64,000 nucleotides of DNA from Spirochaetia bacterium (GTDB lineage Bacteria > Spirochaetota > Spirochaetia > CAKZLE01): assembly GCA_963677595.1 (NCBI GenBank), contig OY782041.1, forward strand, positions 2,944,001 to 3,008,000. The letters are read 5' to 3'. Position numbers and translations under genes: made by a program. Shown piece after piece: positions 46,670-64,000 of this stretch. The first letter of the stretch is position 1, and each line of letters starts with the position of its first letter. Below the pieces are notes generated by a model. It ran no database searches and was not told the origin of the DNA. It saw only the letters and a list, made by a program, of their open reading frames with translations.

Positions 46670-46742
46670 TTTTTCATTCCCTTCTGAACACTGATGAGTT
46701 CAGTTATACCATGAAATAGACAGGAAAACAATAAGCGTTACA

Positions 46743-46891: not shown

Positions 46892-47298
46892 TATATCGAG
46901 CGTATGGCAACAGAGCTGTACTTCAACGTGAAACATGCGCTTATGGTCCCGATGCTGTCCTGTGTACCTGTGTTATGTGTTAACAGGCGACCTCCCTGCA
47001 GATGGACCGGTATAGTTAAACCCAGATCTCAGGCGGCGGCCCCACATCCCTCATTCAGAAAATCGGGGTCGTCGCCATCTTGTATCCCGAATGGCCTGCT
47101 GCCCGGCTCAAAGATCGGCATCCCTATATACGAAGAAATACACTCACCAAGAGATATCACCTTCGGTGTCAGTGGGTCACTCACACGATATAAAGTCAGC
47201 CGTCCCCTGTATGGTTCTGTGAGGATCGGATGGACCCATACCTGCAGGATAACTGATTATACCTGGATCGAGGAAACATGGTAGAGCATGCTGTTTGA

Positions 47299-48408: not shown

Positions 48409-48583
48409 GGGGCAGACTCCCGGTTCGCTGGTGGAGGGAGAGCAGGAGGCTGTAGGAACCCCTCTCCCTATACAAAGTAGAACAGCTCGTCAGGGTAAAT
48501 CGTTACGGCAGGATGGAAAATACTGTCGGGGAGGGGTGTGGGTGATGGTTTGGGTGTTACATGGGTTTTAGCATGAATACTTA

Positions 48584-48638
48584 CCGTAAAAAAATTACGG
48601 ACTATTGCATATTCTTACCTTTTAGGTGATAATCACCT
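48584..48638 (+). promoter_or_regulatory. Sigma70-like promoter with two inverted repeats
   Basis: TTGCAT-N17-GATAAT (48605-48633); CCGTAA-N5-TTACGG and AGGTGAT-A-ATCACCT. Confidence 0.55.
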
Positions 48639-48653
48639 TAGATGGGGTGAAAC

Positions 48654-49760
48654 ATGTTATATAGATTTTCAGTTGAGAATTTCAAGAATTTCAAGAAGCG
48701 CATTGATTTAGATCTTTCAGATTCGAAGAACTATGCATTCAACAAAGAAGCTGTCAGAGATGGGATAGTCAAGACCTCAATCATCGTGGGTCCCAATGCC
48801 AGTGGTAAATCCAATCTATCCCTGGCAATATTCGATATCATAGGGCATGTCACTGATAAGAATACTACTGCAAAGCGTTATCAGAATTATACGTTTGGGA
48901 ATAATAGTGACCCCGTGAGGTTCTCATACTGGTTCCAGATCGAAGGATCGGTCATACAGTATGAGTATGTGAAGCTTGATCATGAGACGCTGGTGTATGA
49001 GAGACTCACGATACGGGATCGAGTCGTCCTGCTCTTCGACAGGGAGGATGGGACTGTACAGATCGATCTTGAGGGCGCAGAGACGCTCGATAAACAGATC
49101 CAGAACAAGAATCTATCGATACTCAAATACGTCAGGCGGAATACCAACCTGAAAGATACCGTTGAGAATAGATTATTTCATGCAATGTATGATTTCATTG
49201 ATCATATGCTCTCTTTCAGGTCGTTGGATGGGAATGAGTACCAGGGGTATGATGTAGGGTCTGGGAAGATCACGGAGGGAATACTCAAGAAAGGAAAATT
49301 GAAGGAATTTGAAGCGTTTCTGAAGACTGCTCATGTTGATTGTGTCCTGCGAGAGACCAGAACAGATACTAACCGGGATATAGTCTTTTGCTTTGGGAAC
49401 AGGGAGATCCCCTTCTTCGATATCGCTTCGACAGGAACACGGGCTCTGGCATTATTCTATCACTGGTATCTCGATGTACAGGAGTATGTTTCCTTCCTGC
49501 TGATAGATGAATTCGATGCATTCTACCATTTTGAACTTGCCCAGAGTATTGTGGCAGTATTGCGTTCTCTGGGGAAGACCCAGGTGATCCTGACGACCCA
49601 TAATACCGACCTCATCAGCAATGATCTCTTACGGCCTGACTGCTATTTTGAGTTGAAGGAAGACAGGATCGTTCCATTCTGGAGGAATACGAACAAGGAG
49701 ATCCGCCAGGCTCATAATATGCAGAAGATCTATAAGGCCGGCGGTTTCAATGGGAAATAA
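48654..49760 (+). CDS. AAA_21/ABC-type ATPase (RloA/AriA-like)
   Basis: VENFKNF, GPNASGKSN, STGT, LLIDEFD and TTHN motifs; low GC. Confidence 0.9.
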   Translation: MLYRFSVENFKNFKKRIDLDLSDSKNYAFNKEAVRDGIVKTSIIVGPNASGKSNLSLAIFDIIGHVTDKNTTAKRYQNYTFGNNSDPVRFSYWFQIEGSVIQYEYVKLDHETLVYERLTIRDRVVLLFDREDGTVQIDLEGAETLDKQIQNKNLSILKYVRRNTNLKDTVENRLFHAMYDFIDHMLSFRSLDGNEYQGYDVGSGKITEGILKKGKLKEFEAFLKTAHVDCVLRETRTDTNRDIVFCFGNREIPFFDIASTGTRALALFYHWYLDVQEYVSFLLIDEFDAFYHFELAQSIVAVLRSLGKTQVILTTHNTDLISNDLLRPDCYFELKEDRIVPFWRNTNKEIRQAHNMQKIYKAGGFNGK

Positions 49761-50553
49761 CATTCTCTTTGTCTTCGAAGGACGAAAAGCAGAACCTAAG
49801 ATCTTCAGGAATATCAATAGATTGTTCTTCACGTCTGATACAGGGTGCTCGAACTATTTCTATGGGGTCTTTGGGACACATGTGCATCAATTGTGCTGGG
49901 AAGTCCTGGATGATCCTGACCTCGATCTGTTCGTGCTACTGAAGCAACGGGGAATGATCAAGCCGTTGATGCCTCATATAGGTGACATGGGAAGGGATCC
50001 TTCTCAATTAAGACGTGAGGATTTTGCTGAGATATACCTGTTCTTTGATGCGGATAATCATGATCCCGACTTTGATGCTACGAAGCTGGAAGAGCTCGTT
50101 TCCTTCTTTGACAATGAGACAGAACATGGCAAACTGTATATCAACTATCCTATGGTTGAATCGTTAAAAGACTATCATCCGAAAAAAGCACAATATGCGA
50201 GATGCCTGGTACCAGTAGAAAACAATATACACTATAAGAAAGCAGTAGGCGACTATACCTGTAATGCCCATGTAGGAACATATACTGTTGGATACTGGAA
50301 AGAACTCATACGATACTTCATTAGAAGGGGAAACTGTCTGCTTGAAGACTACTACGAGATGATCAACTATGATGTATATATGGAGCGACTCTTGCAGATA
50401 TCGATCGTGAGGAAACAGCGTGATCATTGGGCACTACAGCAGACCTTTATGCTGAACAGCATCCCGTTTTTCCTGCTCGATTATTTCGGGAGGGATTTCT
50501 ATGATTCCTGCTGGCAGAATATCAACCAGGTTCGCTCAAGCGACTTCAGCTGA
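49750..50553 (+). CDS. RloB/TOPRIM-like protein
   Basis: FVFEG...EP.IF, FFDAD and INYPMVES motifs; overlaps the ATPase stop codon. Confidence 0.6.
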   Translation: MGNNILFVFEGRKAEPKIFRNINRLFFTSDTGCSNYFYGVFGTHVHQLCWEVLDDPDLDLFVLLKQRGMIKPLMPHIGDMGRDPSQLRREDFAEIYLFFDADNHDPDFDATKLEELVSFFDNETEHGKLYINYPMVESLKDYHPKKAQYARCLVPVENNIHYKKAVGDYTCNAHVGTYTVGYWKELIRYFIRRGNCLLEDYYEMINYDVYMERLLQISIVRKQRDHWALQQTFMLNSIPFFLLDYFGRDFYDSCWQNINQVRSSDFS

Positions 50554-50651
50554 ATGAAGTGTACACCAGGAAACCCCAAAGATCTTCAAGACACCCAGCA
50601 GTTGGAATAGCCATATCCCTTGAGGTGCAGGGACGTACAGCACCCTGAAGC

Positions 50652-51335
50652 TCACTCCTCCTGCTCGAACAGCCTCTGTATGTTCGGCAGCTTCAGCAGC
50701 CTGAGCTCAGAGTTGATCAGATGGTCGTGCATGAGCGCTGCTGCCGTCTTCCCGTCATGCACGAGCATGGCATCGAGGATGCCGATGTGCTCATCGATGG
50801 CGGCCTGTTCGATGATCACCTCCTTCTTCCCAAAGCCCCAGCGCCTGATGAGCCAGCACTGCTCCCGTACGGTCTGCAGGAGCTTCTGCAGGCGGGCGTT
50901 CTGTGAGCCGATCATGATGGTGTCATGGAAGAAGATGTCGAGGTCGATGAGTTCTGAGAGGCTGTGGTCTGCTATGAGTGCCTCGCTGTCGTGGAAGACC
51001 TGCCGGAGGGCCTGGATCTCCTCAGTCGCCATTTTCTTCACGGCCTGCTTGACTGAGAGGCTCTCGAGGACAGCTCGGATCTCGAAGAGGTCGCTGACCC
51101 CCCCGGCCGTGGGCTTGAAGACCGTGTAGCCGGTCCCGTTGTACTCGACGAGCCCCTGCTCCACGAGGGAGGAGAGGCCGTCGCGGACCGGGGTCCTGCT
51201 TACCTGGAGTTCTTCCGCGAGCTTGTCCACGACCAGCCGCTGGCCGGGAAGGTACTTCATGGAGAAGACGTTCTCCTTGATCAGGATGGTTGCCTGGTCA
51301 CTCAGGCTCTTTCGTACTACGACTTTCTGTGCCAT
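50652..51335 (-). CDS. GntR/FadR (FCD) regulator
   Basis: VSRTPVRD HTH; LDIFFH and EH..I motifs. Confidence 0.93.
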   Translation of the reverse strand: MAQKVVVRKSLSDQATILIKENVFSMKYLPGQRLVVDKLAEELQVSRTPVRDGLSSLVEQGLVEYNGTGYTVFKPTAGGVSDLFEIRAVLESLSVKQAVKKMATEEIQALRQVFHDSEALIADHSLSELIDLDIFFHDTIMIGSQNARLQKLLQTVREQCWLIRRWGFGKKEVIIEQAAIDEHIGILDAMLVHDGKTAAALMHDHLINSELRLLKLPNIQRLFEQEE

Positions 51336-51343
51336 GTATCACC

Positions 51344-52420
51344 TCACATTCCGAGTAACTTCTTCAACGGTTCGACTTCCCCCATATCCTCGACCATGAT
51401 ATGGAGGTAGAGACTGCTGCAGTCCAGCCGGGAGACGATGAGCCGCATCTCTTCCGGGGTGAAGGCCCCGCGGAAGATGACCGGCCTGCCGCTTTCCTGG
51501 ATCTTTCTGATATGGGGGATCATCTCGGAGACCGGGGGACCTCCCACATCGTTGTTCACCTCGAATGCCTTGATCCCCCGTATCTCGAGCAGTTCGTCCA
51601 GGACGAACATCGAGGTCGAGTGAAGGTGCATGAAGGTGTATGCATACCGCTCGGCGATCGCCGCGTCGATATGCTGGACGTACTTCCTGTAGAGAGTGGG
51701 GGAGAAGATCGGCAGCGCGTCCTCCTGCAGCCGGGCGATGGGTCCGGGCGCCCAGAGGTAGTACTGGGCATCGTAGTACCCTCCCTGCCAGAGGGGGGTA
51801 CGGTCCCAGACGGCATCGCGTGTTGCGGTGAAGACTTCCCCCATCTTCTCGAAGAGTTCCCCGATGCCGGGTGTCCCGTCCATCATGGAGATGGCTGTGT
51901 TCGTATGGCCGTGGAGGATGACTGCCAGGTCGGTCGGGCCGACGACGCAGCCGTGGCTGACGGGGTAAGCCCCGTCAGCATGGGCGATGAGGGCGTCGAC
52001 GTACTCAAGGTAGACCTTCATCCAGGGATTCGATGCATCAGTACATACCTGCGGGATCTCCTCGAGCGGCAGGTTCTTGTCCTCCGCGAGCAGGCTGCCG
52101 GGGAGGATACGCAACTCCCCGCCGATGACGGCGCAGTTCCAGGGGATCCCCTGGTGGGGACAGCCGCCCCGGATGATATCGTCATCCATACGCTCCCCCT
52201 CGGCTATCATCCGGTCCTGGTCGGCGAGGAAGTCCGCCGGGTCGACCATATCGGGGGTGAGGTAGCTGTCGAGCGGCCAGGAGGAGGTAATGCGGTACTC
52301 CTCCACCGGGAGCCAGCCCTTGAAGGTGAACCCGACAAGGGGCCGGTCGGAGAGGTTCATGTCCCAGAAGTCACGGTAGCGCCGGGTCTTGGCAGGGTCA
52401 TTGCCGAAGGGGTACGTCAT
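51344..52420 (-). CDS. Divergent URO-D/MtaA-fold (uroporphyrinogen decarboxylase-like) protein
   Basis: GPTDLA..LHG, QEDA..IFSP.LY and MHLH motifs; paralogous to 55387-56472. Confidence 0.65.
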   Translation of the reverse strand: MTYPFGNDPAKTRRYRDFWDMNLSDRPLVGFTFKGWLPVEEYRITSSWPLDSYLTPDMVDPADFLADQDRMIAEGERMDDDIIRGGCPHQGIPWNCAVIGGELRILPGSLLAEDKNLPLEEIPQVCTDASNPWMKVYLEYVDALIAHADGAYPVSHGCVVGPTDLAVILHGHTNTAISMMDGTPGIGELFEKMGEVFTATRDAVWDRTPLWQGGYYDAQYYLWAPGPIARLQEDALPIFSPTLYRKYVQHIDAAIAERYAYTFMHLHSTSMFVLDELLEIRGIKAFEVNNDVGGPPVSEMIPHIRKIQESGRPVIFRGAFTPEEMRLIVSRLDCSSLYLHIMVEDMGEVEPLKKLLGM

Positions 52421-52435
52421 ACAGCATATCTCCCC

Positions 52436-53725
52436 TTAGTAGACCAGGTTCGGCAGGAAGAGCGAGATCCCCGGAACGTAGGTGATCAGCAGCAGGCAGA
52501 TGAGCAGGACCAGGTAGAAGGGCCATGCCTCCTTGATGAAGTCCTTGATCTTCACCTTGGTGATCGTGCAGGTGGTGAACATCAGCGTCCCCATCGGTGG
52601 GCTCAGGGAGCCGACTGCGAGGTTGAAGATGAACACCAGGCCGAAATGGACGGTATCGATGCCGAGGGCTTTGACCATGGGCATGAGGATCGGGATGAGG
52701 ACGAGCATGATGGCGTTCCCCTCGATGAACATCCCGATCATGAGCAGGAAGATGTTCAGCAGCAGGAGGAACTGCCACTTGGAGCTGACGATCGAGAGGA
52801 TGAAGGAGGTCGCATGCTGCGGGACCTGCTCCCAGGTGAGGAACCAGCCGAAGGTGGAGGCAGCGCCGATGATCAGCATGATCGAGGAGGTGGTGACCAC
52901 CGTCTCGATGACCGCATCCTTGATCTGGATGAGTTTCATCTCCTTATAGACGAGCATCCCGAGGATGAAGGCATAGAGGATGGCGATGGCCCCGGCTTCG
53001 GTCGGGGTGAAGATACCCAGGCGGATACCGCCGATGATGACTACGGGTAGCAGCAGGGCGAGCATGGCGTCCTTGGACCCGCGCGCGACGTCCTTCACCG
53101 ATGCGCGTTTCTCGAAGATTGGGGTGTACCCGCGCTTGATCGAGACGAAATGGACGGCGGCCATCATGACGATACAGGTGAGGACCCCGGGGAGGATCCC
53201 TGCCAGGAAGAGCTTGCCGATCGATACGTTCCCAATATACCCGAAGATGATCAGGGCGATGCCCGGCGGGATGATCGGGGTGATGATGGCAGAGGCTGCC
53301 GTGACGACGGAGGAGAAGGCGGGGCTGTAGCCGCGCTGGATCATCTCCGGCACCAGGATCTTGGACTGCATCGCCGCGTCTGCGATACTCGAGCCTGAGA
53401 GCCCTCCCATGAGGGTGCTCAAGACGACGTTGGTCTGGGCGAGCCCTCCCGGCATGTGGCCGGTGAGGATCTCGCTGAAGCGGACCATCCGCCTCGTGAT
53501 CCCGGTATAGTTCATCAGGACGCCTGCCATGACGAAGAAGGGGACGGCGAGCAGCGGGATCGACTCGACGCCGCCGATCATCCGCTGGATGAGGATCATG
53601 AAGGTGACCTGGTCCGAGAGGAGGAAGTAGATGAAGGTGCTGCCGAGGATGGCGGCGAACACTGGGACGTTGATGAAGAGCAGCACGACCAGTGAGATCA
53701 GTGCGACATTTACTGAGGGATTCAT
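52436..53725 (-). CDS. dctM: TRAP transporter large permease
   Basis: LLAVPFF, GGLSGSSIAD, IIPPGI and FTPTEA motifs. Confidence 0.95.
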   Translation of the reverse strand: MNPSVNVALISLVVLLFINVPVFAAILGSTFIYFLLSDQVTFMILIQRMIGGVESIPLLAVPFFVMAGVLMNYTGITRRMVRFSEILTGHMPGGLAQTNVVLSTLMGGLSGSSIADAAMQSKILVPEMIQRGYSPAFSSVVTAASAIITPIIPPGIALIIFGYIGNVSIGKLFLAGILPGVLTCIVMMAAVHFVSIKRGYTPIFEKRASVKDVARGSKDAMLALLLPVVIIGGIRLGIFTPTEAGAIAILYAFILGMLVYKEMKLIQIKDAVIETVVTTSSIMLIIGAASTFGWFLTWEQVPQHATSFILSIVSSKWQFLLLLNIFLLMIGMFIEGNAIMLVLIPILMPMVKALGIDTVHFGLVFIFNLAVGSLSPPMGTLMFTTCTITKVKIKDFIKEAWPFYLVLLICLLLITYVPGISLFLPNLVY

Positions 53726-54228
53726 GATTCTGCCTCCTCGGTGTTCTTAGCAGGTTCCTTCCTGAATATGTCCAGGGAGTTCCTGATGGTATTGACGATC
53801 ATATAGAGACTCCCGATCGGGACCGCGATGTCGATGAACGGGTAGGGGACCTTCAGCAGCGGGGTGATCTTCGCCCCTGACTGCATGGCCTTCTTGTACC
53901 CGTAGATGAGGATGATGAGCAGCAGGATGTTGGTGATGGCAAGGCTGACGATATCGGCGACCTTCCTGGCCTTCGGCGGCAGTTCGTCCACCACGATGTC
54001 GATGCTGACATGGTTTCGGCGCTTCGTCGCCGAGCTTGCACCCATGAAGACCGCCCAGATGAAGAGGCCGAGCGAGACCTCTTCCACCCAACCGAGGGGG
54101 GAGTTCAGCAGATATCGGAAAACCACTCCCAGGACGGTGATCAGGATGATTGATGAGATGCAGACCCCTGAGATGATGTCATCGAGGTTCCCGATGACAT
54201 GGAGGATCTTCTTAACAGTTAGTTTCAT
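53722..54228 (-). CDS. dctQ: TRAP transporter small permease
   Basis: VVFRY, WVEE and HVSID motifs; 4 TM helices. Confidence 0.93.
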   Translation of the reverse strand: MKLTVKKILHVIGNLDDIISGVCISSIILITVLGVVFRYLLNSPLGWVEEVSLGLFIWAVFMGASSATKRRNHVSIDIVVDELPPKARKVADIVSLAITNILLLIILIYGYKKAMQSGAKITPLLKVPYPFIDIAVPIGSLYMIVNTIRNSLDIFRKEPAKNTEEAES

Positions 54229-54249
54229 GGTAATTCCCCTCGTTCGAAC

Positions 54250-54282
54250 GGCTGAGGACCCTTTACGTAAGAGTCCCCAGCC
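54250..54282 (-). terminator. Hairpin between dctP and dctQ
   Basis: Minus-strand stem GGCTGGGGACTCTT / AAGGGTCCTCAGCC with G-U pairs. Confidence 0.5.
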
Positions 54283-54314
54283 TGGATTCGGTTATATACT
54301 CATTTCCGGTTGGA

Positions 54315-55325
54315 TTATTTCATGTTCGCCTTGACCGTCTCATAGAGGCCTGGTGACCACTGTGAGAAGCTGTCGTATACCGGCCGGACTGCTTTCTGGA
54401 AGGCTGCCACATCGACATCGTCCACGATGGTCACGCCGGCTGCCTTGAGTTCTTCCATGGCTTCCTTGTCCGACTTGTCCAGGGATGCGTTCAGTGTCAG
54501 GCCTGCCTCGTCACCGGTCTCCATGATGATCTGCTTCATGTCTGCCGGGAGTCCGTTGAAGAAGTCCGCCCCGCCGATCCACATTGCCAGCAGCTTGATA
54601 TGGCCGGTGAGGTTCAGGTACTTGGCGCTCTCATACATCTTGGAGCCGTAGAGTACCGGGATCGGGTTCTCGACACCTTCGATGACGCCCTGTGCGAGTG
54701 CGGGGTATGCATCTCCCCAAGGCATCGGGGTAGCGGTAGCGCCCATGCCGTTGATGGTCTTGATGAAGAGCTCGTTGTTCGGGCACCGGATCTTCACGCC
54801 TTCGAGGTCTGCAGGGGTCCGTACTGCCTGCTTGCTGATGATATGACGGTCGCCGTAGGCCCAGTTCGCCGTGAGGACGGTGAGGCCGGTCTTCTCGAGC
54901 TTCGCAACCTGCTCATCGAACCAGGGGCTGCTCGTCAGGGTGAAGTACTCATCCCAGGTGGTCCCGAGGAAAGGACCTGAGAGGATGCCGATGTCGGGGA
55001 CGAAGTCCATGAGGAAGCTACCGTCGGTGATGGTGATGACGTTGCTGCCCATCTTCATCTGCTCGGTGAGGTCGACCTTCGACCCGAGCTGTGAACTCGG
55101 GAAGAGCTGGAGCTCAATCCTTCCGTTACTTCGCTCTGCAGCGAGTTCTGCCCACTTCTGTGCTGCGACATCGACCGGTTCCCCGGGGTTGTTCTCATAC
55201 CCGACTTTCAGGATGATCTTCTCCGCTGCCTTGGGGGCAGCTTCCTGGGAGCCGTTCGCCATCAGGAAGCCTGTTGACAGCAGACAGACGGCAACGAATG
55301 CCACGATCAGTTTTCTCATACTCAT
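54315..55325 (-). CDS. dctP: TRAP substrate-binding protein
   Basis: FPSSQLG, DLEGVKIR (carboxylate-binding Arg) and GVENP motifs; signal ...MANGSQE; start is one of three nearby ATGs. Confidence 0.93.
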   Translation of the reverse strand: MSMRKLIVAFVAVCLLSTGFLMANGSQEAAPKAAEKIILKVGYENNPGEPVDVAAQKWAELAAERSNGRIELQLFPSSQLGSKVDLTEQMKMGSNVITITDGSFLMDFVPDIGILSGPFLGTTWDEYFTLTSSPWFDEQVAKLEKTGLTVLTANWAYGDRHIISKQAVRTPADLEGVKIRCPNNELFIKTINGMGATATPMPWGDAYPALAQGVIEGVENPIPVLYGSKMYESAKYLNLTGHIKLLAMWIGGADFFNGLPADMKQIIMETGDEAGLTLNASLDKSDKEAMEELKAAGVTIVDDVDVAAFQKAVRPVYDSFSQWSPGLYETVKANMK

Positions 55326-55386
55326 ACTCATTCTCCTTTTGTTTTCTATGAAAAGCGACATACCCAGTCTGGACTGGGGATCCCGC

Positions 55387-56472
55387 CTAACTCCATACTC
55401 TCTTCTTCCAGAACTCGAGGTACTCCTTCGCGCTCTCGAGATCATCGCATTGGGTATCGACATAGAGCCGGTCGCACCTGAGCTCAGGCAGGAGCAGCTC
55501 CAGGTCCTCCGGTGTGAACTTCCTCAGCAGCAGGCAGTGGTCCTCCTGCACGAGCTTCAGCATCGGAATCATCTCCTCGACCTTCGGCCCTGCCGGCCAG
55601 TCGTTGACCACCTGGAGCCCGCGCAGCCCGGGGTGCTTGAGGAACTCGGGCACCAGCCGTATCTGTCCTGAGTGGGTGTGCATCCAGGGGGTGTCCATCG
55701 ACTCGAGGGCCTCGTCATCGGAGGCGAAGAGCAGGTCCATGTAGTCATCGGCAGACAGGCCTACCGTGAGGTCGTCATCCACCATGCAGCTCCGTCCCGG
55801 GGTCCAAAGGCTGTAGTAGTCGCAGTACCCGCCCTCGAGCGAGGGGATCATGTCGAAGCAGAGCTGCGTCGTCCTGATGTAGGCATCGGTGCAGATTCGT
55901 GCGAGCTTCCTGACATTCTCCCGGTCGAGCGCGATATCGAGGTACATCTCCGTGACGCCCCTGAGGTCTGCCATGATGTCCCCGGGTCCGGTGAAGAGGT
56001 TCGTCCCCACGGGGAACCGACCCCGTGCATGCTCGGTGAAGTAGGCTACCTGCTCCTCCATGAGGGCTATCCACGCATTTGTGGAGTCGATCGGGTGGTT
56101 CCGGTACCGATCAAGGTCCCCGTAGTCCTTCATGATGTGTTCGTTCCAGCTCGTTCCCTTCCCGAAGGTCACCGGGGCACCCATGATGCCGCCCATGAAG
56201 GCGGGGCCATGGTAGACGGCCGCGACGAGCATGTCGTCATCAGGCAGCTCTCGCTTCTGGTCGTTCATATGTTCCCAGTAGGCGAAGTGGGTGTCAGCTG
56301 CCTCGCAGCTCTCCTGCCACTCGGGATCGGAGACGCCGTCGAGCGGGTAGCGGATGCGGATCGGCGGGTGGTCGATGAACTCCCGCTCCCAGAACGCCTT
56401 GAGCCGCTGGAGGCTCTCAGGGCCATTGGGTTTATATGAGAGGTCATCTATGGAAAAATCTTCATGGTTCAT
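55387..56472 (-). CDS. Divergent URO-D/MtaA-fold protein
   Basis: GPGDIMADLRG, DDD..LS...Y and MHTH motifs. Confidence 0.65.
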   Translation of the reverse strand: MNHEDFSIDDLSYKPNGPESLQRLKAFWEREFIDHPPIRIRYPLDGVSDPEWQESCEAADTHFAYWEHMNDQKRELPDDDMLVAAVYHGPAFMGGIMGAPVTFGKGTSWNEHIMKDYGDLDRYRNHPIDSTNAWIALMEEQVAYFTEHARGRFPVGTNLFTGPGDIMADLRGVTEMYLDIALDRENVRKLARICTDAYIRTTQLCFDMIPSLEGGYCDYYSLWTPGRSCMVDDDLTVGLSADDYMDLLFASDDEALESMDTPWMHTHSGQIRLVPEFLKHPGLRGLQVVNDWPAGPKVEEMIPMLKLVQEDHCLLLRKFTPEDLELLLPELRCDRLYVDTQCDDLESAKEYLEFWKKRVWS

Positions 56473-56493
56473 TACTCACTACTCCATCATGTT

Positions 56494-56515
56494 CGCATTC
56501 CGTATACGAAATACG
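56494..56515. promoter_or_regulatory. Probable GntR operator 1
   Basis: Quasi-palindrome CGCATTC-CGTATACG-AAATACG; the same motif recurs at 57371. Confidence 0.65.
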
Positions 56516-56622
56516 ATGTAAATGAAGTATAGAACGGCTTAGTGCATCTGTCAATAATTTTTTTCAGCAGCTTTTTTAAGCTTGTGAGATAGGGGAAATG
56601 AGCGGTAAGGGGAAAGAGGAGA

Positions 56623-57273
56623 TCACTCCTCCCGGAGCATGGCCCTGCCTTCGGCATGATCGAGATGGGTCCTCATCGCCTTGACGGTCCGGGAGGCGTC
56701 GTGGGCCTTCAGGCCGTCGAGGATCGCTAAGTGCTCATCGATCGTCTCCTGCTCCATCGGCATATGGGGGCGCTTGCTGAAGAGCCACCGATTCACCAGC
56801 TGGTGCTGGTCCATGAGGGAGGAGAGGATGCGTGTCAGCCTGGTACAGTGGGATGCGCCTGCAAGGGCTTGGTGGAACCTGATATCGAGGTCGATCATGT
56901 CAACCGGGTCTGATGCCTTGATATGGCTGATCATAATATCTTGCATAGCAATGAGTTCTTCAGATGTTACACGTTCGGCTGCAAGCTTCACGGCAAGCTC
57001 TTCGAGCGGGGTGCGCAGGGCGTAGATATCGGTGATGTCCTCCGGTGAGAGGTCTATGACATGGTAGCCCTTTCCGTTGTAGTCGACGAGTCCCTGTTCC
57101 CCAAGCTTCTTCAGCGCCTCGCGAACGGGCGTCCTGCTGCTGTTGAACTTCTCTGCCAGGGTATCGACGATGAGACGGGATCCGGGAGGGAACTCGAGTG
57201 AGAAGATTGCTTCCTTGATGAGATCGATCATCTGGTCGCTGATACTCTGTCTGACTATGATCTTCTGTGCCAT
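56623..57273 (-). CDS. GntR/FadR (FCD) regulator
   Basis: SSRTPVREAL HTH and LDIRFH motif; paralog of 50652-51335. Confidence 0.93.
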   Translation of the reverse strand: MAQKIIVRQSISDQMIDLIKEAIFSLEFPPGSRLIVDTLAEKFNSSRTPVREALKKLGEQGLVDYNGKGYHVIDLSPEDITDIYALRTPLEELAVKLAAERVTSEELIAMQDIMISHIKASDPVDMIDLDIRFHQALAGASHCTRLTRILSSLMDQHQLVNRWLFSKRPHMPMEQETIDEHLAILDGLKAHDASRTVKAMRTHLDHAEGRAMLREE

Positions 57274-57364
57274 ATAGAAAGAATACTATCATAAATAGAG
57301 GACTCGGACAACTCTGCATCGATCCAGAGAAGTTTTTCCTTTACAACCTGGTGATTATGGTTTA

Positions 57365-57431
57365 CAGTATCGTATACGGAATACGGGATGCAGAAAGTGT
57401 CTGCAGAATATGTCTGCAGAATATGTCTGCA
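57365..57431. promoter_or_regulatory. Probable GntR operator 2 followed by a 13-bp tandem repeat
   Basis: CGTATACGGAATACG at 57371-57385; TGTCTGCAGAATA x2.6 at 57398-57431. Confidence 0.65.
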
Positions 57432-57460
57432 TGAGTTATAAGAAGGAGTTGTTTTTTATC

Positions 57461-59149
57461 ATGACCATCAGAGAGAAATATATCGCGGCAATCAGGGAAG
57501 AGCGTAAAGCCGCTTCCCGTGACGGTATACAGAAGGTACATGCTGGCCTGGAGAGGGGGGAGGTCGGGACGGTCCGGTCCTACCTGCTCTTCCACGCAGA
57601 TAGGGAGAATTGGGACGAAGAACTGGGGACCCTGCTGAAGGGACTCGGCCGGCTTATAGAGGAAGGTGACTACCAGGCGAAGCGTACAGGGCTCTCCGTG
57701 CTTGCCGGACTGGCGATCGACCTGCTGAGTTTCTTACCGATGTGGTACCTGAAGCCCGACGTCAGTGATGAGGTGCTTCACAGGGGAAGTGAGAAGGTTC
57801 AGGACCTGCTCGGGGAACTGGCCGCACGATATGCGCAGAGCGCGTCGGAGGTCCATGAAGGGATCATACGCAGGAGCAGGAAGCGGTTCGCCGCCGAGGC
57901 TGTTGCGGACGACGAGCTAGAGGATGAAGTACAGAAGCTGTGCGGCAGTTCGCTGCCGGAGTATGTCACGCGGATGATAGCGCAGCTGCATAGTTCGAAC
58001 CTCCTGGAGACAGCACGGCTCTTCAGGGAGGCGGGCAGCCCGACGGTCCTCGGCAACGATTACGGGGACTTCCTCGAGGAGACGCTCTGGATGGGGACCT
58101 CCTATGTCACCACCAACCCGCCGCTGATCAACCTCGCCTGGAACACGGAACCCGAGTTCTGGGACGGGGAGCTTGAAGCCTACACCAGGGAGAACCATAT
58201 CGACCTGAGCAGTGAGGGGGCAGCGACCACCCTCTGCAGGGCTGCGACCATGCTGGTGGTGGAGCGCAACTGTCGCCGTCTCAGGGACATCTTCCTGCTC
58301 ACTGAAGGGAAGCAGGGCTACTGCTGCTACCAGGTCAACCCCAACAACCACAACCATGCCGACGGCATGGTCGAGGAGGTCGCAGCGGTCTACGGACTGC
58401 TTGAGGAACGGCTCGGAGGCGTGCCGAACGTCTCCTTCAAGCTGCCGGGTACCCCGGCAAGCGTGGAGGCGGCAAAGACGTTGAGCGCCTGGGGCGTCTC
58501 CTTGACCATCACCCTCGAGTTCGGACTCTTCCAGGCGGTGGAGTTCGCGAAGATATTCTCGGCAGGGGAGGCGATCACCAGCAATGTGGTCGTCATGAAC
58601 GGGCGTCTCGCTTTCCCGGTTCGGGATGAACTCATCGCCAATGGGATCGAGGGCGGTTCGGAAGCCTCGAAGCTCGCAGGTGTGGAAGTCTCCAGGCACC
58701 TCTACCGCACGCTCTATGAGGGAGGTCTTGGGATCGACCCCCAACGGGTGAGGATCATGAATGCCTCCCTGCGGATCTACGGCTCTGATATCCCGGACCT
58801 CATCGAGCTCTGGGGCTTCCCGCTGATCACGATCTTCCCCAATGTGCGGAGGGTCTACGACGCCGTACCGCGGGAGATCACCATCGACCGGACGGCAGGG
58901 GAGACCCCTGCCGATGTCATGGCGGTCCTGCATGAGAGCGAGATCTTCAGGCAGGCATGGTGGACCGAGGGGGATTCCCCCGATACGAGACCAACGCAGT
59001 TGCTGGTACTCTCCGACGAGATGGAACCGCAGGTCGTCAGCTGGGGACCGATCACCGCGACGCTGGACCAGTTCCTCGGCTCGTATGCAGAGCTGGAGAC
59101 CCGTGTGAAGCGCATCATCGCAGGGATGAAGAAGGAGGAGACAGCATGA
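57461..59149 (+). CDS. Transaldolase-family protein with ~200-aa N-terminal extension
   Basis: VTTNP, FKLPGT (Schiff-base Lys), NGRL and MNASLR motifs. Confidence 0.85.
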   Translation: MTIREKYIAAIREERKAASRDGIQKVHAGLERGEVGTVRSYLLFHADRENWDEELGTLLKGLGRLIEEGDYQAKRTGLSVLAGLAIDLLSFLPMWYLKPDVSDEVLHRGSEKVQDLLGELAARYAQSASEVHEGIIRRSRKRFAAEAVADDELEDEVQKLCGSSLPEYVTRMIAQLHSSNLLETARLFREAGSPTVLGNDYGDFLEETLWMGTSYVTTNPPLINLAWNTEPEFWDGELEAYTRENHIDLSSEGAATTLCRAATMLVVERNCRRLRDIFLLTEGKQGYCCYQVNPNNHNHADGMVEEVAAVYGLLEERLGGVPNVSFKLPGTPASVEAAKTLSAWGVSLTITLEFGLFQAVEFAKIFSAGEAITSNVVVMNGRLAFPVRDELIANGIEGGSEASKLAGVEVSRHLYRTLYEGGLGIDPQRVRIMNASLRIYGSDIPDLIELWGFPLITIFPNVRRVYDAVPREITIDRTAGETPADVMAVLHESEIFRQAWWTEGDSPDTRPTQLLVLSDEMEPQVVSWGPITATLDQFLGSYAELETRVKRIIAGMKKEETA

Positions 59150-60822
59150 GTACCTACCAGTTCGGCAAGCTTGCCATCGACCCGAAGACCAACCCTGCCG
59201 TGCTCGATACGCTCACCTGGGACGAAGATACGGTTACCCGCGATATTCAGGCCAAGCGTATGACCATAGATGAGCATGCCGATGCCTCCTATCATGGGGC
59301 GGAGTATCGGGTCGGCTCGTTCGATGATGCGCAGAAGGTCATCATCGCAGTGGGGGAGGCTGAATCCCCCTTCCCGGATGCACCGATCCTCACGGAAGGG
59401 GCCGGGGCTAAGGTCGGGCGTCGCGTCTACCCGATGACGGATGCCAACCTCCATGCCTATGTGACGAAGATCCATCCCCGCAAGGGTCCGAGGGCTCTTG
59501 GGGCCGTACCACGGCTCGGTATCGGGGTGAGGCAGTCAACGACCATGTGGCCCGGTATCTGGAAGGCGATGAACCGGGGGGACTTCTCTGCCAATGCCAT
59601 CCAGAACTCGGTGCGGGAGCTCCATATACTCGAACGGCTCAAGGAGGGGAAGCCCCCAAGGGTCAACCACCTCTTCAGCTTCGGTGCCGTCCAGGAGGGA
59701 CATGCCGGCAGCACCTTCGAGGGGCTGTGGACCGCCGGGGTGGCTTCTGCGCTCTCCAGTGAGTACTACCCCCGCTACGGCGCGGATGCCGACCACCTCC
59801 AGGTCAAGCGAGGCCCGGAGGGGATCGAGCGTACCAAGGAGTTCATCAGAGCTTCCCGCTACTACACCTTCTATACCCTCGATGTGTCGGACATCCTCGA
59901 CTACGAGGCGCTCACGCTCTTCAGCGCCGGCGAGGCCCTCAGCCTGCTGGAGGAGACGATCCCCGATGTGAACCTGAGGAAGGATATCCTCTTCTACCAC
60001 CGGCAGCGGAAGGTCATCGGGAAGCAGGTCTATGACTTCGACGAAGCGACGATCGCGCGTCTCGTCGGCAAGTACTGGAAGGCTCTCGATGCGGTCGAGG
60101 AGCTCGATAAGTACATTCAGGAGCTCAAAGGCGGCGAGGCTTTCGACCTCGAGCTCAGCATCGATGAGAACCCGCCGGAAGTGACGACCTTCGAGTCGAT
60201 CACCATGAACGGGGAGCTGCTTTTCCTCATGGAGGAGATCAACAGACGCGGGATCGGGGTCACCCATATCGCGCCGAACTTCGGGGTGGAGAAGTGTACC
60301 GATTACCGTGGGACAGATGGTCTCGAGGGGCTGGGGCGGAGAGTCGCCGAACAGTCCCTCATGGCTTCGGAGTACGGCTTCATGCTCGACTGCCACTCAG
60401 GCGACGACCTGAGCCGGAAGACCCGGCAGGTCATCGGGAAGGCTGCGAAGGGCAGGATCCACTATAAGGTATCGCCGTCGCTGCAGGTCCTCTATGCGCA
60501 GGTGCTCTCCCAGGTGGACCCTGAGAAGTTCCTGCTCTGGTGGCAGGAGACCTATGAACTGGCTCGGGAGAGTGCACGGGGCGGTTCGTCCGTCGCACAG
60601 GATGCCCTCTTCCGCTACAAGCAGTTCGAGAACCCCGAACCCTCGGCAGACCACTTCTTCTTCCAGGAGTATAACTTCGCTGCTGTGGGAAGGCGGGATG
60701 CGAACGGTCAGTTCGTCAACAGGGAGCGGTTCTATGATGTGAGCGATGAGTTCCAGCAGCTGCTGACACAGAGGCTCGAGGCCCACCTGTGCAGCTGGGC
60801 TGCTGATCTCTTCGACCACTGA
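59146..60822 (+). CDS. Tagaturonate/fructuronate epimerase (UxaE)-family protein
   Basis: QNSVREL, GADADHL, ELSIDE, HSGDD and HYK motifs; ATGA overlap with the upstream gene. Confidence 0.8.
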   Translation: MSTYQFGKLAIDPKTNPAVLDTLTWDEDTVTRDIQAKRMTIDEHADASYHGAEYRVGSFDDAQKVIIAVGEAESPFPDAPILTEGAGAKVGRRVYPMTDANLHAYVTKIHPRKGPRALGAVPRLGIGVRQSTTMWPGIWKAMNRGDFSANAIQNSVRELHILERLKEGKPPRVNHLFSFGAVQEGHAGSTFEGLWTAGVASALSSEYYPRYGADADHLQVKRGPEGIERTKEFIRASRYYTFYTLDVSDILDYEALTLFSAGEALSLLEETIPDVNLRKDILFYHRQRKVIGKQVYDFDEATIARLVGKYWKALDAVEELDKYIQELKGGEAFDLELSIDENPPEVTTFESITMNGELLFLMEEINRRGIGVTHIAPNFGVEKCTDYRGTDGLEGLGRRVAEQSLMASEYGFMLDCHSGDDLSRKTRQVIGKAAKGRIHYKVSPSLQVLYAQVLSQVDPEKFLLWWQETYELARESARGGSSVAQDALFRYKQFENPEPSADHFFFQEYNFAAVGRRDANGQFVNRERFYDVSDEFQQLLTQRLEAHLCSWAADLFDH

Positions 60823-60847
60823 TGATTGACACACAGGAGATGGTATA

Positions 60848-61651
60848 ATGTTCAGATTACATGGGGAAGTCGCCCTCGTTGTGGGTGCCGGTTCTGGGAT
60901 AGGCCGTACCTGCGCCGTAAGGCTCGCAGCCGAAGGCGCGAAGGTCGCTGTGGCCGATATCCAGGCAGAAGGCGCCGACGAGACGGTACGGCAGATCAGG
61001 GAGGATGGAGGGACGGCCCAGGCTGTCCTGGTCAACCTCTCACAGTTGGAGAGCATCGAGAAGATGGTCGCCGGGGTAGTGAGCCTCTACGGGCGTATAG
61101 ACATGCTCGTAAACGTGGCGGGTATCTGCCAGAGCAAGCCCTTCCTTGAGGTGACCGAAGGAGAATGGGACCGCATCATCGACATCAACGAGAAGGGTAC
61201 GGCATTCTGCATGCAGTCCGTCGCGAAGCAGATGGTCAGCCAGATTGGGGAGGATGCTGCTCCAGGTTGTCACGGGAAGATCGTCAACTTCTCGTCGATC
61301 TCGGGACGCAGGGGCAGGGCGCTGCAGATCCACTACGCTGCATCCAAGGCAGCGGTGATCAGCCTCACCCAGTCGGGAGCGCTTGCGCTCTCCCCCTACG
61401 GGATCACCGTCAATGCGGTCTCCCCGAGCGTGGTGAAGACCCCGATGTGGGAGAAGAACGTGGCGGAGAAGAGTAAGGCCTTCGGCAACGACGTCGAGGA
61501 GGAGACGAGGGAGTTCCTCTCAAGGATCCCGCTCCAGCGGGCAGGGACCGCTGACGAGATGGCGGACGCCGTGCTCTTCCTCTGCTCGGAGGGATCGAAC
61601 TATATCACCGGCCAGACACTCAACGTGGACGGCGGATTCGAGATGGACTAG
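60848..61651 (+). CDS. SDR oxidoreductase (polyol/sorbitol dehydrogenase-like)
   Basis: GAGSGIG, SGRRG...HYAASK and TGQTLNVDGG motifs. Confidence 0.92.
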   Translation: MFRLHGEVALVVGAGSGIGRTCAVRLAAEGAKVAVADIQAEGADETVRQIREDGGTAQAVLVNLSQLESIEKMVAGVVSLYGRIDMLVNVAGICQSKPFLEVTEGEWDRIIDINEKGTAFCMQSVAKQMVSQIGEDAAPGCHGKIVNFSSISGRRGRALQIHYAASKAAVISLTQSGALALSPYGITVNAVSPSVVKTPMWEKNVAEKSKAFGNDVEEETREFLSRIPLQRAGTADEMADAVLFLCSEGSNYITGQTLNVDGGFEMD

Positions 61652-61669
61652 AGAGGGGAGAAACGATAT

Positions 61670-62758
61670 ATGAATGCAAAGGAACGTATACAGGCGGTGC
61701 TGCATCACCGGATGCCGGACAGGGTGCCCATCAACGAGTTTCTCTACAGCAAGGAGCTCTACCAGCATGTCCTTGGCCATAAGCCGGAGTTCTACAATGG
61801 CGAGGATGTCATGAACTGCGCACGGAAGCTCGGGATCGACATGGGGGTCCTGCCTATCGGGGGATTCTCCGGAATCGGGAATACCGCAGAGGATTCTGAT
61901 GTCTACATCGACGAGTGGGGGATCACCTACCACAAGCCGGAGGAGCACTCCTGGCCGTCGGGGGTCCCGATCGGGTTCCCCCTCACCGGCGCGGCGGACT
62001 GGAAGGGCTACTCGATTCCCGATATTCGGACCCCGGGCAGGCTCAAGGAGATCGACATCGCGGTGAGGCTGGGGAACGAGTACGGGATGGGCGTCTTCGG
62101 GAGCATCAGGGGGCCGTTCACGGCATCCTGGCTGCTCTTCGGCTTCGACCACTTCTCCATGCTCCTCTATGATGACCCCGAGTTCCTCAAGGTGGTCATC
62201 CACCAGGTGACTGACTTCTTCATCGAGGCAGGGCGCATGCTGGCGAACGCCGGGGTGGATGCCGTCCTCTTTGCTGACGACTACGGCAGCTCCACAGGAC
62301 CGTTGATCTCCCCTGCGCATTACCGGGAGTATATATGGCCGGAGGTGAATCGTCTGGTCTCGGGTATCAAGGAGGCCGGGGTGCCGGTGATCATGCACAG
62401 TGACGGCAACCTCAATGCCTTCCTCGATGACATCATGCAGAGCACCCCGATCGACGGATACCATCCTATCGAGCGGAATGCCGGGATGGATATCGCGGAG
62501 GTGAAGCGGAAGTACGGCCATGACCATGTGCTCATGGGTAACGTCAACAACCAGGGAGTCCTGGTGGACGGGTCGGTCGACGATGTGGTGGAGGCGACGA
62601 AGGAGTGCCTCAGGTCGGCAGCGCCGGGCGGGGGCTACATCCTCGGTTCAGACCACAGCATCCATGACGACATGCCCATTGAGAACATCCTGGCCATGAT
62701 CGATACCGGTCTCACCTATGGGACCTATCCCCTTGATATGGAAGCATTGAGCAGGTAG
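61670..62758 (+). CDS. Uroporphyrinogen decarboxylase/MtaA-family protein
   Basis: MNAKER...PDRVP, DEWG, GPF, DDYG...LISP, HSDG and GGYILGSDHSI motifs. Confidence 0.88.
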   Translation: MNAKERIQAVLHHRMPDRVPINEFLYSKELYQHVLGHKPEFYNGEDVMNCARKLGIDMGVLPIGGFSGIGNTAEDSDVYIDEWGITYHKPEEHSWPSGVPIGFPLTGAADWKGYSIPDIRTPGRLKEIDIAVRLGNEYGMGVFGSIRGPFTASWLLFGFDHFSMLLYDDPEFLKVVIHQVTDFFIEAGRMLANAGVDAVLFADDYGSSTGPLISPAHYREYIWPEVNRLVSGIKEAGVPVIMHSDGNLNAFLDDIMQSTPIDGYHPIERNAGMDIAEVKRKYGHDHVLMGNVNNQGVLVDGSVDDVVEATKECLRSAAPGGGYILGSDHSIHDDMPIENILAMIDTGLTYGTYPLDMEALSR

Positions 62759-62789
62759 TCTTCCTACCATAAGCAGTCTACTAGCTCCC

Positions 62790-62822
62790 GAGGGCACCTG
62801 TACCATCAGCGCAGGTGCCCTC
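62790..62822. terminator. Hairpin between convergent genes
   Basis: GAGGGCACCTG-N11-CAGGTGCCCTC. Confidence 0.5.
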
Positions 62823-62924
62823 ATCTTTGTCCGACTACCAACCGCCTGCATCATCCCCAATAACCGGTTGCTACCGGACTTTCGTCATGACAGAGGAATA
62901 TCACATGAAAAAGGTAATGGCTGT

Positions 62925-63893
62925 TCAGGGACAGAGCTCCGGTGCGTGGACCAGTCGGATGGTATCGGTTGAGCCATCGATAAGCTGCAGCAGTGCTTCT
63001 GCTGCTTCCCGGTATATATAGCTGATCCCGATCTCGATTGATGCTGGTTTCTTTTCCAGGACCAGGAGTTCCGTACTGTTGTCGTATCCGATCACTGGGC
63101 AGTGATCCTGAAGATTGATCTGTCTCTTGAACAGGGAAGTCAGCGTCCGTACCAGATGCATGTCATTGACTGAGGCGAGTCCGTCGATGCTCTTTTTCTG
63201 GATGTCCATAAACAGCTGATCGAACCAGTCAGACTGTTCATCCCGGTTGTAGATCCTGCATTCGGGGTATATCGACCTGAAGCCCTGTTCCCTGAGTTTG
63301 TGGGAGAACGGGTCCTCGCTGTAGGTGATGTACACCGGGTTCGCGCAGTCCCTGGACTTCAGGTACTCCGCCTGAATGACCCCTCCCCTGAAGTTGTCAG
63401 TTGCCGAGAAGTTCACATCCTTTAGATGTGCAGCCCTGTGGCAGATCACGTAGGGTATTTCCCAGGAATCTATATAGCGCGACTCCTCAGCCGTGACGAA
63501 GTCAAAGATCATGATACCGTCACAGTGGGCTTTGACATCCTTGGCACTGATGGAGTAGATGGAGGAGACCTGCTTGATCTCGAAGAAGTAGGGCTGCTCC
63601 TCGAAGTAATTGGTGAGTGTCAGCAATGCCTCCGAGAAGATCCAGTAATTTCTCTTTATATTGGTCCAGTAGTGTCCGTCTTCCCGTTTCACGTAGAGGA
63701 GCATGATCGTATTGGTCCCTTTCCTTCTGAGGGCGCTGGCATTCTTGTCGAGCTTGTATCCCATGGATTCTGCTGCTTCCATGATCTTCTGGCGGGTCGC
63801 CGGAGAAACCTTGTCCGGCCTGCTGAATGCCCTGGATACGGTTGCCTGGGATACTCCCACGACTTTTGCTATCATATAACTGTCAACTTTCAT
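62925..63893 (-). CDS. LacI-family transcriptional regulator
   Basis: IAKVVGVSQATVSRAF HTH and VIGYDN motif. Confidence 0.92.
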   Translation of the reverse strand: MKVDSYMIAKVVGVSQATVSRAFSRPDKVSPATRQKIMEAAESMGYKLDKNASALRRKGTNTIMLLYVKREDGHYWTNIKRNYWIFSEALLTLTNYFEEQPYFFEIKQVSSIYSISAKDVKAHCDGIMIFDFVTAEESRYIDSWEIPYVICHRAAHLKDVNFSATDNFRGGVIQAEYLKSRDCANPVYITYSEDPFSHKLREQGFRSIYPECRIYNRDEQSDWFDQLFMDIQKKSIDGLASVNDMHLVRTLTSLFKRQINLQDHCPVIGYDNSTELLVLEKKPASIEIGISYIYREAAEALLQLIDGSTDTIRLVHAPELCP

Positions 63894-64000
63894 ATTCCAC
63901 TACCTGATGCATACGAATGTATTAATTTGTTTGTATTAGGTATATAATATCATATCTTTATAAAATAAACAAATAATAAATATTTTTCTTGACATATCCT

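Follow-up and report, generated by a model that had tools for sequence, protein, structure and literature searches.

A spirochaete locus with a transaldolase-like enzyme and a candidate kinase-free route for six-carbon aldonates

Introduction

Can a bacterium degrade a six-carbon sugar acid with a gene cluster that encodes an importer, an epimerase, a dehydrogenase and a transaldolase-like enzyme, and no kinase? The catabolism of uronates and aldonates is taught as a combination of dehydratase, kinase and KDPG aldolase. The question is raised by 11 genes at positions 50652..62758 of a 64,000-nt stretch of DNA from a Spirochaetia bacterium (contig OY782041.1, 2,944,001-3,008,000; hereafter the window, with G000 denoting its own genome). 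A preliminary description of this stretch proposed a sugar-acid pathway built on three proteins of the uroporphyrinogen decarboxylase (URO-D) fold, here named U1, U2 and U3. Our results suggest another centre of gravity. The locus is an uncharacterised, and real, variant of the transaldolase-type catabolism of anionic sugars. With moderate confidence, we propose that an importer controlled by a GntR operator and an operon of transaldolase-like (TAL-like), UxaE-like and short-chain dehydrogenase/reductase (SDR) genes degrade a six-carbon aldonate without a kinase; from the genes, operator, folds, conserved residues, co-occurrence and gene fusions observed, we infer every substrate and reaction named below.

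Results

Two operons and a shared operator

An open reading frame (ORF) check of the window found all 11 ORFs placed as previously described, with families assigned by Pfam or, for U1 and U2, by fold and BLAST. The relatives of its proteins also place the host among the spirochaetes. Matches over the Pfam cut-offs were obtained for the two GntR/FCD regulators, DctM, DctQ, DctP, TAL_FSA, UxaE, SDR and, in the case of U3, URO-D; U1 and U2 yielded no Pfam match. The DctP, DctQ and DctM models all matched, which identifies a transporter of the TRAP (tripartite ATP-independent periplasmic) family. Intergenic gaps within each operon range from -4 to 86 bp, which is operon-like. As reported before, kinase, dehydratase, tetrapyrrole and corrinoid genes are absent from the 11 genes of the cluster based on profile scans.

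The two divergent operons had also been described as sharing an operator, and this was confirmed. The sequence CGTATACGNNATACG occurs exactly at 56501 and 57371, each copy directly behind a predicted -10 box, and these are the only two exact copies in the 4,325,376-bp genome. When up to two mismatches were allowed, four matches were found relative to 0.5 expected, and none of 100 shuffles scored as high. A copy with at most one mismatch was detected in 5/80 related loci. Between the operator and the probable start of the TAL-like gene, positions 57397-57430 contain a short TGTCTGCAGAATA-type sequence duplicated in tandem (2-3 copies).

Conserved core of the TAL-like loci

Of 92 genome loci with a member of the TAL-like family, we analyzed the best 80 (hereafter TAL loci). 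UxaE-family genes were found in 42/80 of them and SDRs in 46/80; among the 41 loci that belong to the clades closest to the window, 34 have a UxaE-family gene. Close UxaE relatives were present in 33 TAL loci, close SDRs (orthologs at 48% or above) in 25, and both in 24. Orthologs of U1 were found in six TAL loci, behind the SDR gene, and any URO-D-fold gene in 13, and U1, U2 and U3 never occurred together (0/80). G000 and many of its relatives hold large URO-D expansions. These results indicate that the conserved core consists of the TAL-like, UxaE-like and SDR genes and that the URO-D genes are accessory. The gene set had been expected to be conserved together elsewhere, and this holds for its catabolic half but not for the URO-D trio, which we reject as the conserved core; with 27 URO-D ORFs in G000, a pathway "built on" these three proteins is not supported. 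A second complete trio is hinted at only by three sequences (P0002, P0122 and P0314), each from one 16,715-bp contig of the same source given without an accession.

Gene fusions and neighbors connect the TAL-like enzyme to 5-keto-hexonates. The TAL-like gene is fused to UxaE in three loci (L002-L004) and to an iron-type alcohol dehydrogenase (Fe-ADH) in two (L065 and L069). One of the latter, L069, has the order LacI, uxaC (506 bits; cut-off 387), classical-type uxaE and TAL~Fe-ADH, and is, judging from its predicted activities, a minimal uronate route. In six Chloroflexota loci the TAL-like gene adjoins IolB (3/3 of those tested pass TIGR04378), whose product is 2-deoxy-5-keto-gluconate. IolO-like TIM barrels, whose best model is a 5-keto-L-gluconate epimerase at a score under its cut-off, were found in 30/80 TAL loci, UxaB in 5/80 and UxaC in 1/80. 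Overall, a family making or interconverting 5-keto-hexonates is present in 60/80 TAL loci and in 47 of the 56 loci of at least 10 kb. UxaA, KdgA and UxuA are absent from all 80 and a KdgK-like gene was found in one. The other recurrent neighbors are aldehyde-reductase-type genes (27/80), Fe-ADH (20/80), split transketolase halves (19/80), MttB-family genes (11/80, with a corrinoid gene alongside in two) and glycerate kinase (3/80).

Several Chloroflexota TAL loci (L044, L054, L056, L065 and L070, among others) carry MttB, class III aminotransferase, IolO-like barrels, Asp/Glu racemase and 2-oxoacid dehydrogenase E1 genes. It is possible that these loci encode an N-methyl-amino-sugar-acid route feeding the same enzyme.

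Predicted entry substrate, dehydrogenase and epimerase

In the PDB, DctP is most similar to 4OVT and 4O8M (E-values of 4e-95 and 6e-80, respectively), well ahead of other solved DctPs. Five DctP orthologs were found in 300 genomes of the class and four of their regions were read. One region (L224) contains a zinc-type alcohol dehydrogenase (Zn-ADH), UxaB, a UxaA-like gene, KdgA and KdgK, another (L223) contains Zn-ADH and a UxaA-like gene, and a third (L225) contains the TAL-UxaE-SDR set. The sets of L223 and L224 match the canonical L-galactonate route as outlined in its description (PMC5507952). In addition, no uronate isomerase is present in the window locus. Together with the kinship of the SDR to sorbitol dehydrogenases, the DctP matches, the contexts of its orthologs and this absence suggest that the entry substrate would be an aldonate of the L-galactonate type rather than a uronate. 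A uronate such as 4-O-methylglucuronate, put forward previously, is disfavored by the same DctP matches and L-galactonate-type operons and by the lack of a uronate isomerase.

The SDR is nearest to sorbitol dehydrogenases (PRK07067, 247 bits, under the cut-off of 338), which act on the corresponding carbon when they oxidize sorbitol or galactitol. It presents an Arg where the sorbitol dehydrogenase 1k2w has Glu, in all 19 rows whose motif could be parsed out of 26. The UxaE-like protein scores 90.5 bits against PF16257 (cut-off 27.1) and matches UxaE structures in the PDB with E-values of 1e-13 to 1e-16. Its metal and catalytic motifs are conserved (D216, H217, E336, D340 and E341 in 31/31 rows; H417 in 30/31) and are also present in the alignments to 9lhw and 9kcs. 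It is predicted to be a tagaturonate/fructuronate-type epimerase of a distant subfamily. Epimerization by UxaE gives the C3/C4 configuration that transaldolases require. UxaE is described as epimerizing tagaturonate by a retro-aldol/aldol mechanism (PMC11194214).

The TAL-like enzyme

The AlphaFold model of the TAL-like protein (pLDDT 94.5) shows a helical N-terminal extension of ~190 aa followed by a large-type transaldolase barrel. It superposes on 3clm with a VIA Z-score of 33.8 (root-mean-square deviation (rmsd) 2.7, 317 aligned residues), and less well on BmSF-TAL (Z 20.0); Foldseek also assigns it to the transaldolase fold (E 2.5e-10). An alignment of 80 rows (the window and 79 loci) shows no variation at D217, N236, K344, T368, R399, S453 and Y457, and the Schiff-base Lys of solved transaldolases falls on K344. 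The fold, the Schiff-base Lys, the Asp, the Asn of the TxNP motif and the Thr are all in place. The protein scores far under the cut-off of all NCBIfam transaldolase models. Its residues predict an aldol enzyme of class I that has an anion site and fits neither the standard transaldolases nor the standard fructose-6-phosphate aldolases (FSA). Its true start is probably the ATG at 57461, since a ribosome site precedes this codon and residues 1-14 of the model have a pLDDT below 50.

The family is small: 97 representatives were found at E 1e-30 among 1.84 billion, a shorter sister group included, and the N-terminal domain yielded no usable Atlas match. A TAL-like gene is present in 8/61 related genomes, and members of the family occur in Spirochaetota, Planctomycetota, Chloroflexota, Bacillota and archaea. 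G000 also contains two further transaldolase-family ORFs of ~350 aa in TRAP loci (G000:C1:1679829-1680881 and 2213882-2214928), which present Asn at the expected N-terminal Asp.

Proposed pathway

Based on these observations, DctPQM would import an L-galactonate-type acid, which the SDR may oxidize to D-tagaturonate and the UxaE-like enzyme may epimerize to D-fructuronate. The TAL-like enzyme would then cleave D-fructuronate through a Schiff base at Lys344, giving a dihydroxyacetone unit and tartronate semialdehyde. By analogy with SftT, as presented in PMC7491151, the dihydroxyacetone unit would most likely be passed to glyceraldehyde 3-phosphate to yield fructose 6-phosphate; its free release, as by an aldolase, is nearly as likely. 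Tartronate semialdehyde would be reduced to glycerate by the Fe-ADH of a second locus of G000 (L218; G000:C1:3296794-3302930). This locus gathers the genes that most often accompany the TAL-like gene in other genomes: split transketolase, Fe-ADH (54-69% to those of 19 TAL loci), LarA and two GntR genes (39-41% to those of the window). A KdgA-KdgK pair lies 3 kb away from it, whereas G000 encodes glycerate kinase and an ortholog of 2-hydroxyacid dehydrogenase at other places. The preliminary description had anticipated that a sugar acid is degraded outside the Ashwell pathway, by way of uptake, redox, epimerization and aldol cleavage, and this outline is supported.

Several observations weigh against this pathway. 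The TAL loci are related to one another, so the counts above are not independent, and 20 of the 80 present no 5-keto-hexonate gene (11 of these are shorter than 10 kb). The ligands of 4OVT and 4O8M are only presumed to be L-fuconate and L-galactonate. One DctP ortholog (L226) sits with an unrelated PdxA/DHDPS set, and close DctP orthologs were found in only 2/80 TAL loci. The UxaE-like protein is distant from classical UxaE (~25-28% identity), and the IolO-like, SDR and Zn-ADH assignments all lie under the model cut-offs. In the TAL-like enzyme, Gln308 replaces the Glu that acts as acid/base in transaldolases in 80/80 rows (profile column aligned to the Glu of 3clm), and Met396, also in 80/80 rows, occupies what is presumably the Phe/Tyr position of transaldolase and FSA, in a strand that lies outside the alignments. 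No operator match was found at the second locus L218. Finally, G000 has UxaC and two UxuA, a UxuA-family gene occurs elsewhere in the 5/5 TAL genomes tested (four strong, one partial in G028) and a UxaA-family gene in 4/5.

Because UxuA and UxaA are encoded elsewhere in these genomes, UxaE and SDR could feed the Ashwell route. They would then only convert tagaturonate to fructuronate and mannonate for an exit through UxuA, KdgK and KdgA, as in Thermotoga, and the TAL-like enzyme would handle sugar phosphates together with the split transketolase. The presence of UxuA, the lack of a detected UxaB ortholog in G000, the transketolase halves, the anion-binding Arg and Ser kept in the TAL-like enzyme, and the fact that G000 has no strongly scoring housekeeping transaldolase (three weak matches) are all consistent with this scenario. 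It leaves unexplained, however, the fusions of TAL to UxaE and to Fe-ADH, the operon of uxaC, uxaE and TAL~ADH and the adjacency to IolB, and it sits poorly with the absence of UxuA, UxaA and KdgA from TAL loci and with a TAL-like gene in so few related genomes; we therefore regard it as unlikely. Even less probable is a scheme in which the split transketolase cleaves the 5-keto-hexonate, as an analogue of sulfo-TK, and the TAL-fold protein, lacking the Glu, serves as an isomerase or as a partner without catalytic role. The replaced acid/base Glu and the frequency of transketolase halves, Fe-ADH and isomerase-type TIM barrels agree with such a scheme, but Lys344, Asp217, Asn236 and Thr368 are invariant, and L069 and the IolB loci contain the TAL-like gene without a transketolase. 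Cleavage by the TAL-like enzyme remains our preferred reading.

The URO-D-fold proteins

The three genes do share the URO-D fold. The AlphaFold model of U1 (pLDDT 93.7) retrieves MtaA/UroD first in Foldseek (E 5e-9), and MtaA is its top structural match (VIA Z 20.1, rmsd 3.5, 294 aligned residues, 11-13% identity); U2 is connected to U1 by BLAST (24%, E 1e-23) and U3 by PF01208. They had been presented as three paralogs, which is correct for the fold but not for close kinship, as U3 and U2 have no significant BLAST match. The motifs HLH (H265-H267) in U1, HTH in U2 and HSD in U3 occur, as noted previously, where MtaA-type enzymes have HxC. Beyond these, D234, H265, H267 and R317 with E/Q287 are invariant in 75 rows of U1, whereas U3 conserves D204, H243, D245, H265 and D328-H329 in 70 rows, and neither alignment presents a conserved pair of Cys in the barrel. 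Acidic and His residues are thus retained at the top of the barrel. A PDB sequence search with U1 and its profile gave no match, and the Atlas matches of U1 are limited to unnamed and URO-D clusters. U2 is rarer still: its best matches (30-32%) come from 2/300 genomes of the class and no close ortholog was found. G000 has 23 PF01208 matches and, with two profiles, the 27 URO-D-superfamily ORFs mentioned above; many of its relatives show similar expansions.

Several known roles can be set aside. The N-terminal motif RQAGR is characteristic of HemE; it is absent from the 27 URO-D ORFs, MRQAGR is absent from every ORF of the genome, and U3 scores 48.8 bits against TIGR01464 (cut-off 302.95), which bears out the view that these are not haem enzymes. 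A thiol methyltransferase of the MtaA/MtbA/CmuA type was rejected based on the lack of HxC and on TIGR01463 (99 bits for U3 against 235; no match for U1). A type 1 mlp cluster comprises no fewer than two Mlps along with a corrinoid protein and Ram, co-transcribed, according to PMC10418091, and was rejected because the locus has no corrinoid or RACo gene. Decarboxylation, suggested earlier, found no support.

Nine U3 orthologs were found and four regions were read: two present the order lactonase-U3-Zn-ADH-UxaB-UxaA and two a TRAP-U3-IclR-type arrangement. Since the first two operons place U3 between the lactonase and the hexonate dehydrogenase, U3 appears to act on the aldonate, before C5 oxidation and tagaturonate, whichever exit follows. 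Relatives of U1 neighbor carboxylate transporters, enolase-superfamily dehydratases, 2-hydroxyacid dehydrogenases and glycosidases, with alpha-L-fucosidase-family genes in 7/80 U1 loci. The URO-D-fold proteins are probably optional upstream modules that turn modified aldonates into a plain one. In four genomes of spirochaetes (L183, L184, L187 and L189; labels by sequence inspection), U1-family genes were also seen next to tripartite tricarboxylate (Tct-type) transporters and a regulator resembling PrpR.

Our single best guess, a tentative one, is that U1-U3 are corrinoid-dependent O-demethylases (methyltransferase I type) whose substrate is an O-methylated sugar acid and whose carrier and activator genes lie outside the locus, which is compatible with the TAL core. 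PMC13222342 and PMC10418091 place O-demethylases and CdmB in the UroD superfamily, some of them zinc-free, and methyl transfer is therefore still compatible with the missing HxC. The search of the genome for corrinoid and activator genes, proposed with the preliminary description, found two corrinoid and RACo clusters in G000, outside the locus; RACo was found in 18/18 genomes with a U1-family match and in 32/61 overall, a comparison confounded by kinship, lifestyle and genome size. The MttB-family genes of TAL loci, the placement of U3 orthologs and the fucosidase-family neighbors of U1 also fit. Conversely, none of 80 U1-family metagenome loci (many of them short) contains a corrinoid protein or RACo, a corrinoid gene is found less than 20 kb away for only 2/27 URO-D ORFs, and 67/80 TAL loci have no URO-D gene. 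FTHFS is present in G000, but a stand-alone H4folate methyltransferase (methyltransferase II) is not, the only pterin-binding match being a 1205-aa MetH-like ORF, which leaves the genome without an evident catabolic methyl sink. A slightly less likely alternative is that the URO-D proteins are metalloenzymes that need no corrinoid (a hydrolase, lyase, decarboxylase or isomerase) and use an Asp/His/His(Asp) site on sugar acids. The invariant residues of U1 and U3 listed above, the lack of a Cys pair and a neighborhood of carboxylate transporters, dehydratases, 2-hydroxyacid dehydrogenases and glycosidases rather than corrinoid genes speak for such enzymes, but the literature searched contains no characterized member of the fold with such sugar chemistry, and the U1 family was found only in RACo-bearing genomes.

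The two corrinoid and RACo clusters of G000 (G000:C1:298545-305642 and 411638-421704) each contain one MtaA-like gene of ~450 aa and no H4folate methyltransferase; their corrinoid proteins are encoded at C1:301916 and C1:417518. Among 61 related genomes, 32 present RACo with MtaA-like genes.

Features of the locus and its surroundings

Table 1. Genes and regulatory sites of the cluster (window positions)
Feature	Position	Strand	Evidence
GntR_a, GntR/FadR-family regulator, final gene of the TRAP operon	50652..51335	-	Pfam GntR+FCD; 41% to GntR_b
U1, URO-D/MtaA-fold protein of an unnamed family, accessory	51344..52420	-	Model, fold match, 75-row conservation
DctM, TRAP large permease	52436..53725	-	TIGR00786 over cut-off
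DctQ, TRAP small permease	53722..54228	-	PF04290
DctP, TRAP solute-binding protein, predicted aldonate (L-galactonate/L-fuconate-type) binder	54315..55322	-	NF037995 over cut-off; PDB matches; ortholog contexts
U2, rare and divergent relative within the U1 family	55387..56472	-	24% to U1
TRAP-operon operator (56494-56515) behind sigma70-like promoter (56554-56526)	56494..56554	-	
GntR_b, GntR/FadR-family regulator, between the operons	56623..57273	-	Pfam GntR+FCD
Catabolic-operon promoter-like site (57340-57368) and operator (57371-57385)	57340..57385	+	
TAL-like, transaldolase-fold enzyme of an uncharacterised ~570-aa subfamily	57410..59149	+	PF00923; probable start 57461
UxaE-family (tagaturonate/fructuronate-type) epimerase, overlaps the TAL stop codon	59146..60822	+	PF16257 over cut-off
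SDR, predicted hexonate 5-dehydrogenase, most closely related to sorbitol (L-iditol 2-) dehydrogenases	60848..61651	+	PRK07067 under cut-off; 1k2w alignment
U3, URO-D-family protein (DD-x-G, H-S-D-G), accessory	61670..62758	+	PF01208, 139 bits

The end of the TRAP operon is abutted by a low-GC pair of genes, an ATPase and its partner (48654-50553, + strand), which matches the PADLOC candidate defence system PDC-M12A/B (E 2e-141 and 2e-63). Further away, and separate from the cluster, a GntR/LacI-type regulator is followed by a creatininase-family gene (44853-46669, - strand). On the other side, a LacI regulator (62925-63893) is divergent from an ABC sugar transporter and two sulfatase-like ORFs just past the window (G000:C1:3008048-3014284), and the genome scan for exact operator copies revealed no operator link to this region. 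Rfam gave no match within positions 44000-64000 of the window.

Discussion

Our literature search found no published description of this pathway, nor anything on fructuronate, tartronate semialdehyde and transaldolase together or on the cobalamin-dependent demethylation of methylated sugars; supplements were excluded from this search and subscription journals lay mostly outside its coverage. The papers retrieved on UxaE with transaldolase and on URO-D expansions looked unrelated to the locus. In its broadest form, our proposal is that a Glu-less TAL subfamily of ~570 aa, found in Spirochaetota, Planctomycetota, Chloroflexota and certain archaea, splits 5-keto-hexonates that carry no phosphate (fructuronate, 2-deoxy-5-keto-gluconate), and that here it is supplied by URO-D enzymes removing methyl groups from O-methylated aldonates through a shared corrinoid carrier. 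Taken as a whole this is rather unlikely, and if true it would provide a third way of burning hexuronates and hexonates and would give the large URO-D expansions that are linked to sugars in anaerobes their first function. A (trans)aldolase exit that needs no kinase, if right, would operate in anaerobic sediment, digester and oral bacteria as a carboxylate twin of sulfo-TAL that annotation pipelines have missed. A TAL-like enzyme without the canonical acid/base Glu makes the mechanism itself a question, and feedstocks derived from pectin would benefit from an aldolase that accepts keto-aldonates without a phosphate. The four-activity operon of L069 and commercially reachable substrates make the pathway directly testable, and the placement of U3 between lactonase and dehydrogenase narrows the substrate class for orphan URO-D expansions such as that of G000.

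Comparison with known systems

The closest parallel is the sulfo-TAL pathway (SftI, SftT, SftR/SftD). In PMC7491151, SftT is a transaldolase-fold enzyme that cleaves an unphosphorylated anionic ketose and passes dihydroxyacetone to glyceraldehyde 3-phosphate. The likeness lies in the unphosphorylated ketose with an anion at C6 (predicted in our case), the lack of a kinase and a C3 aldehyde acid that an adjacent dehydrogenase reduces or oxidizes. However, SftT is described there as a decameric-type protein of ~220 aa with 41.7% identity to the transaldolase of T. acidophilum, whereas the window enzyme has ~570 aa, belongs to the large type and presents Gln for Glu and a helical N-terminal domain. 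The partners of TAL here are UxaE, IolB and UxaC rather than sulfoquinovose genes, and no sulfoquinovose isomerase, SQase or exporter of sulfolactate or dihydroxypropanesulfonate (SL/DHPS) was found among the 11 genes or the recurrent neighbor families. FsaA/B share with the window enzyme the Gln at the transaldolase Glu position and Thr/Ala-Val changes at the C1-binding positions, residue roles that we assume; they differ by size class and by what is presumably a Tyr acid/base position, occupied here by Met396.

The UroD-superfamily methyltransferases MtaA/MtbA (MT2), the Mlps, OdmB/VdmB/MtvB/MtoB and CdmB (PMC10418091, PMC13222342) have the fold in common with the URO-D proteins of the window. 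In contrast to them, U1 shows 11-13% identity and no HxC, and the locus has no corrinoid, activase or H4folate methyltransferase gene.

The Thermotoga UxaR regulon (uxaE, uxaD, gntE (LarA), gntK and gnd), described in PMC3750489 and PMC7583248, also combines GntR, UxaE, an SDR-type reductase, a LarA-family epimerase and, in some species, TRAP. It exits via gluconate kinase or UxuA, with no transaldolase step described in those texts, and its UxaE differs from that of the window, which forms a distant subfamily. Finally, the L-galactonate pathway (LgoD-UxaB-UxaA-KdgK-KdgA with an L-fuconate/L-galactonate TRAP), as given in PMC5507952, resembles the window in the DctP clade and in the U3 orthologs, which occur with its genes in other spirochaetes, and would have tagaturonate as a common intermediate. 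The difference is that in the window the SDR, UxaE and TAL-like genes take the place of Zn-ADH, UxaB, UxaA, KdgK and KdgA.

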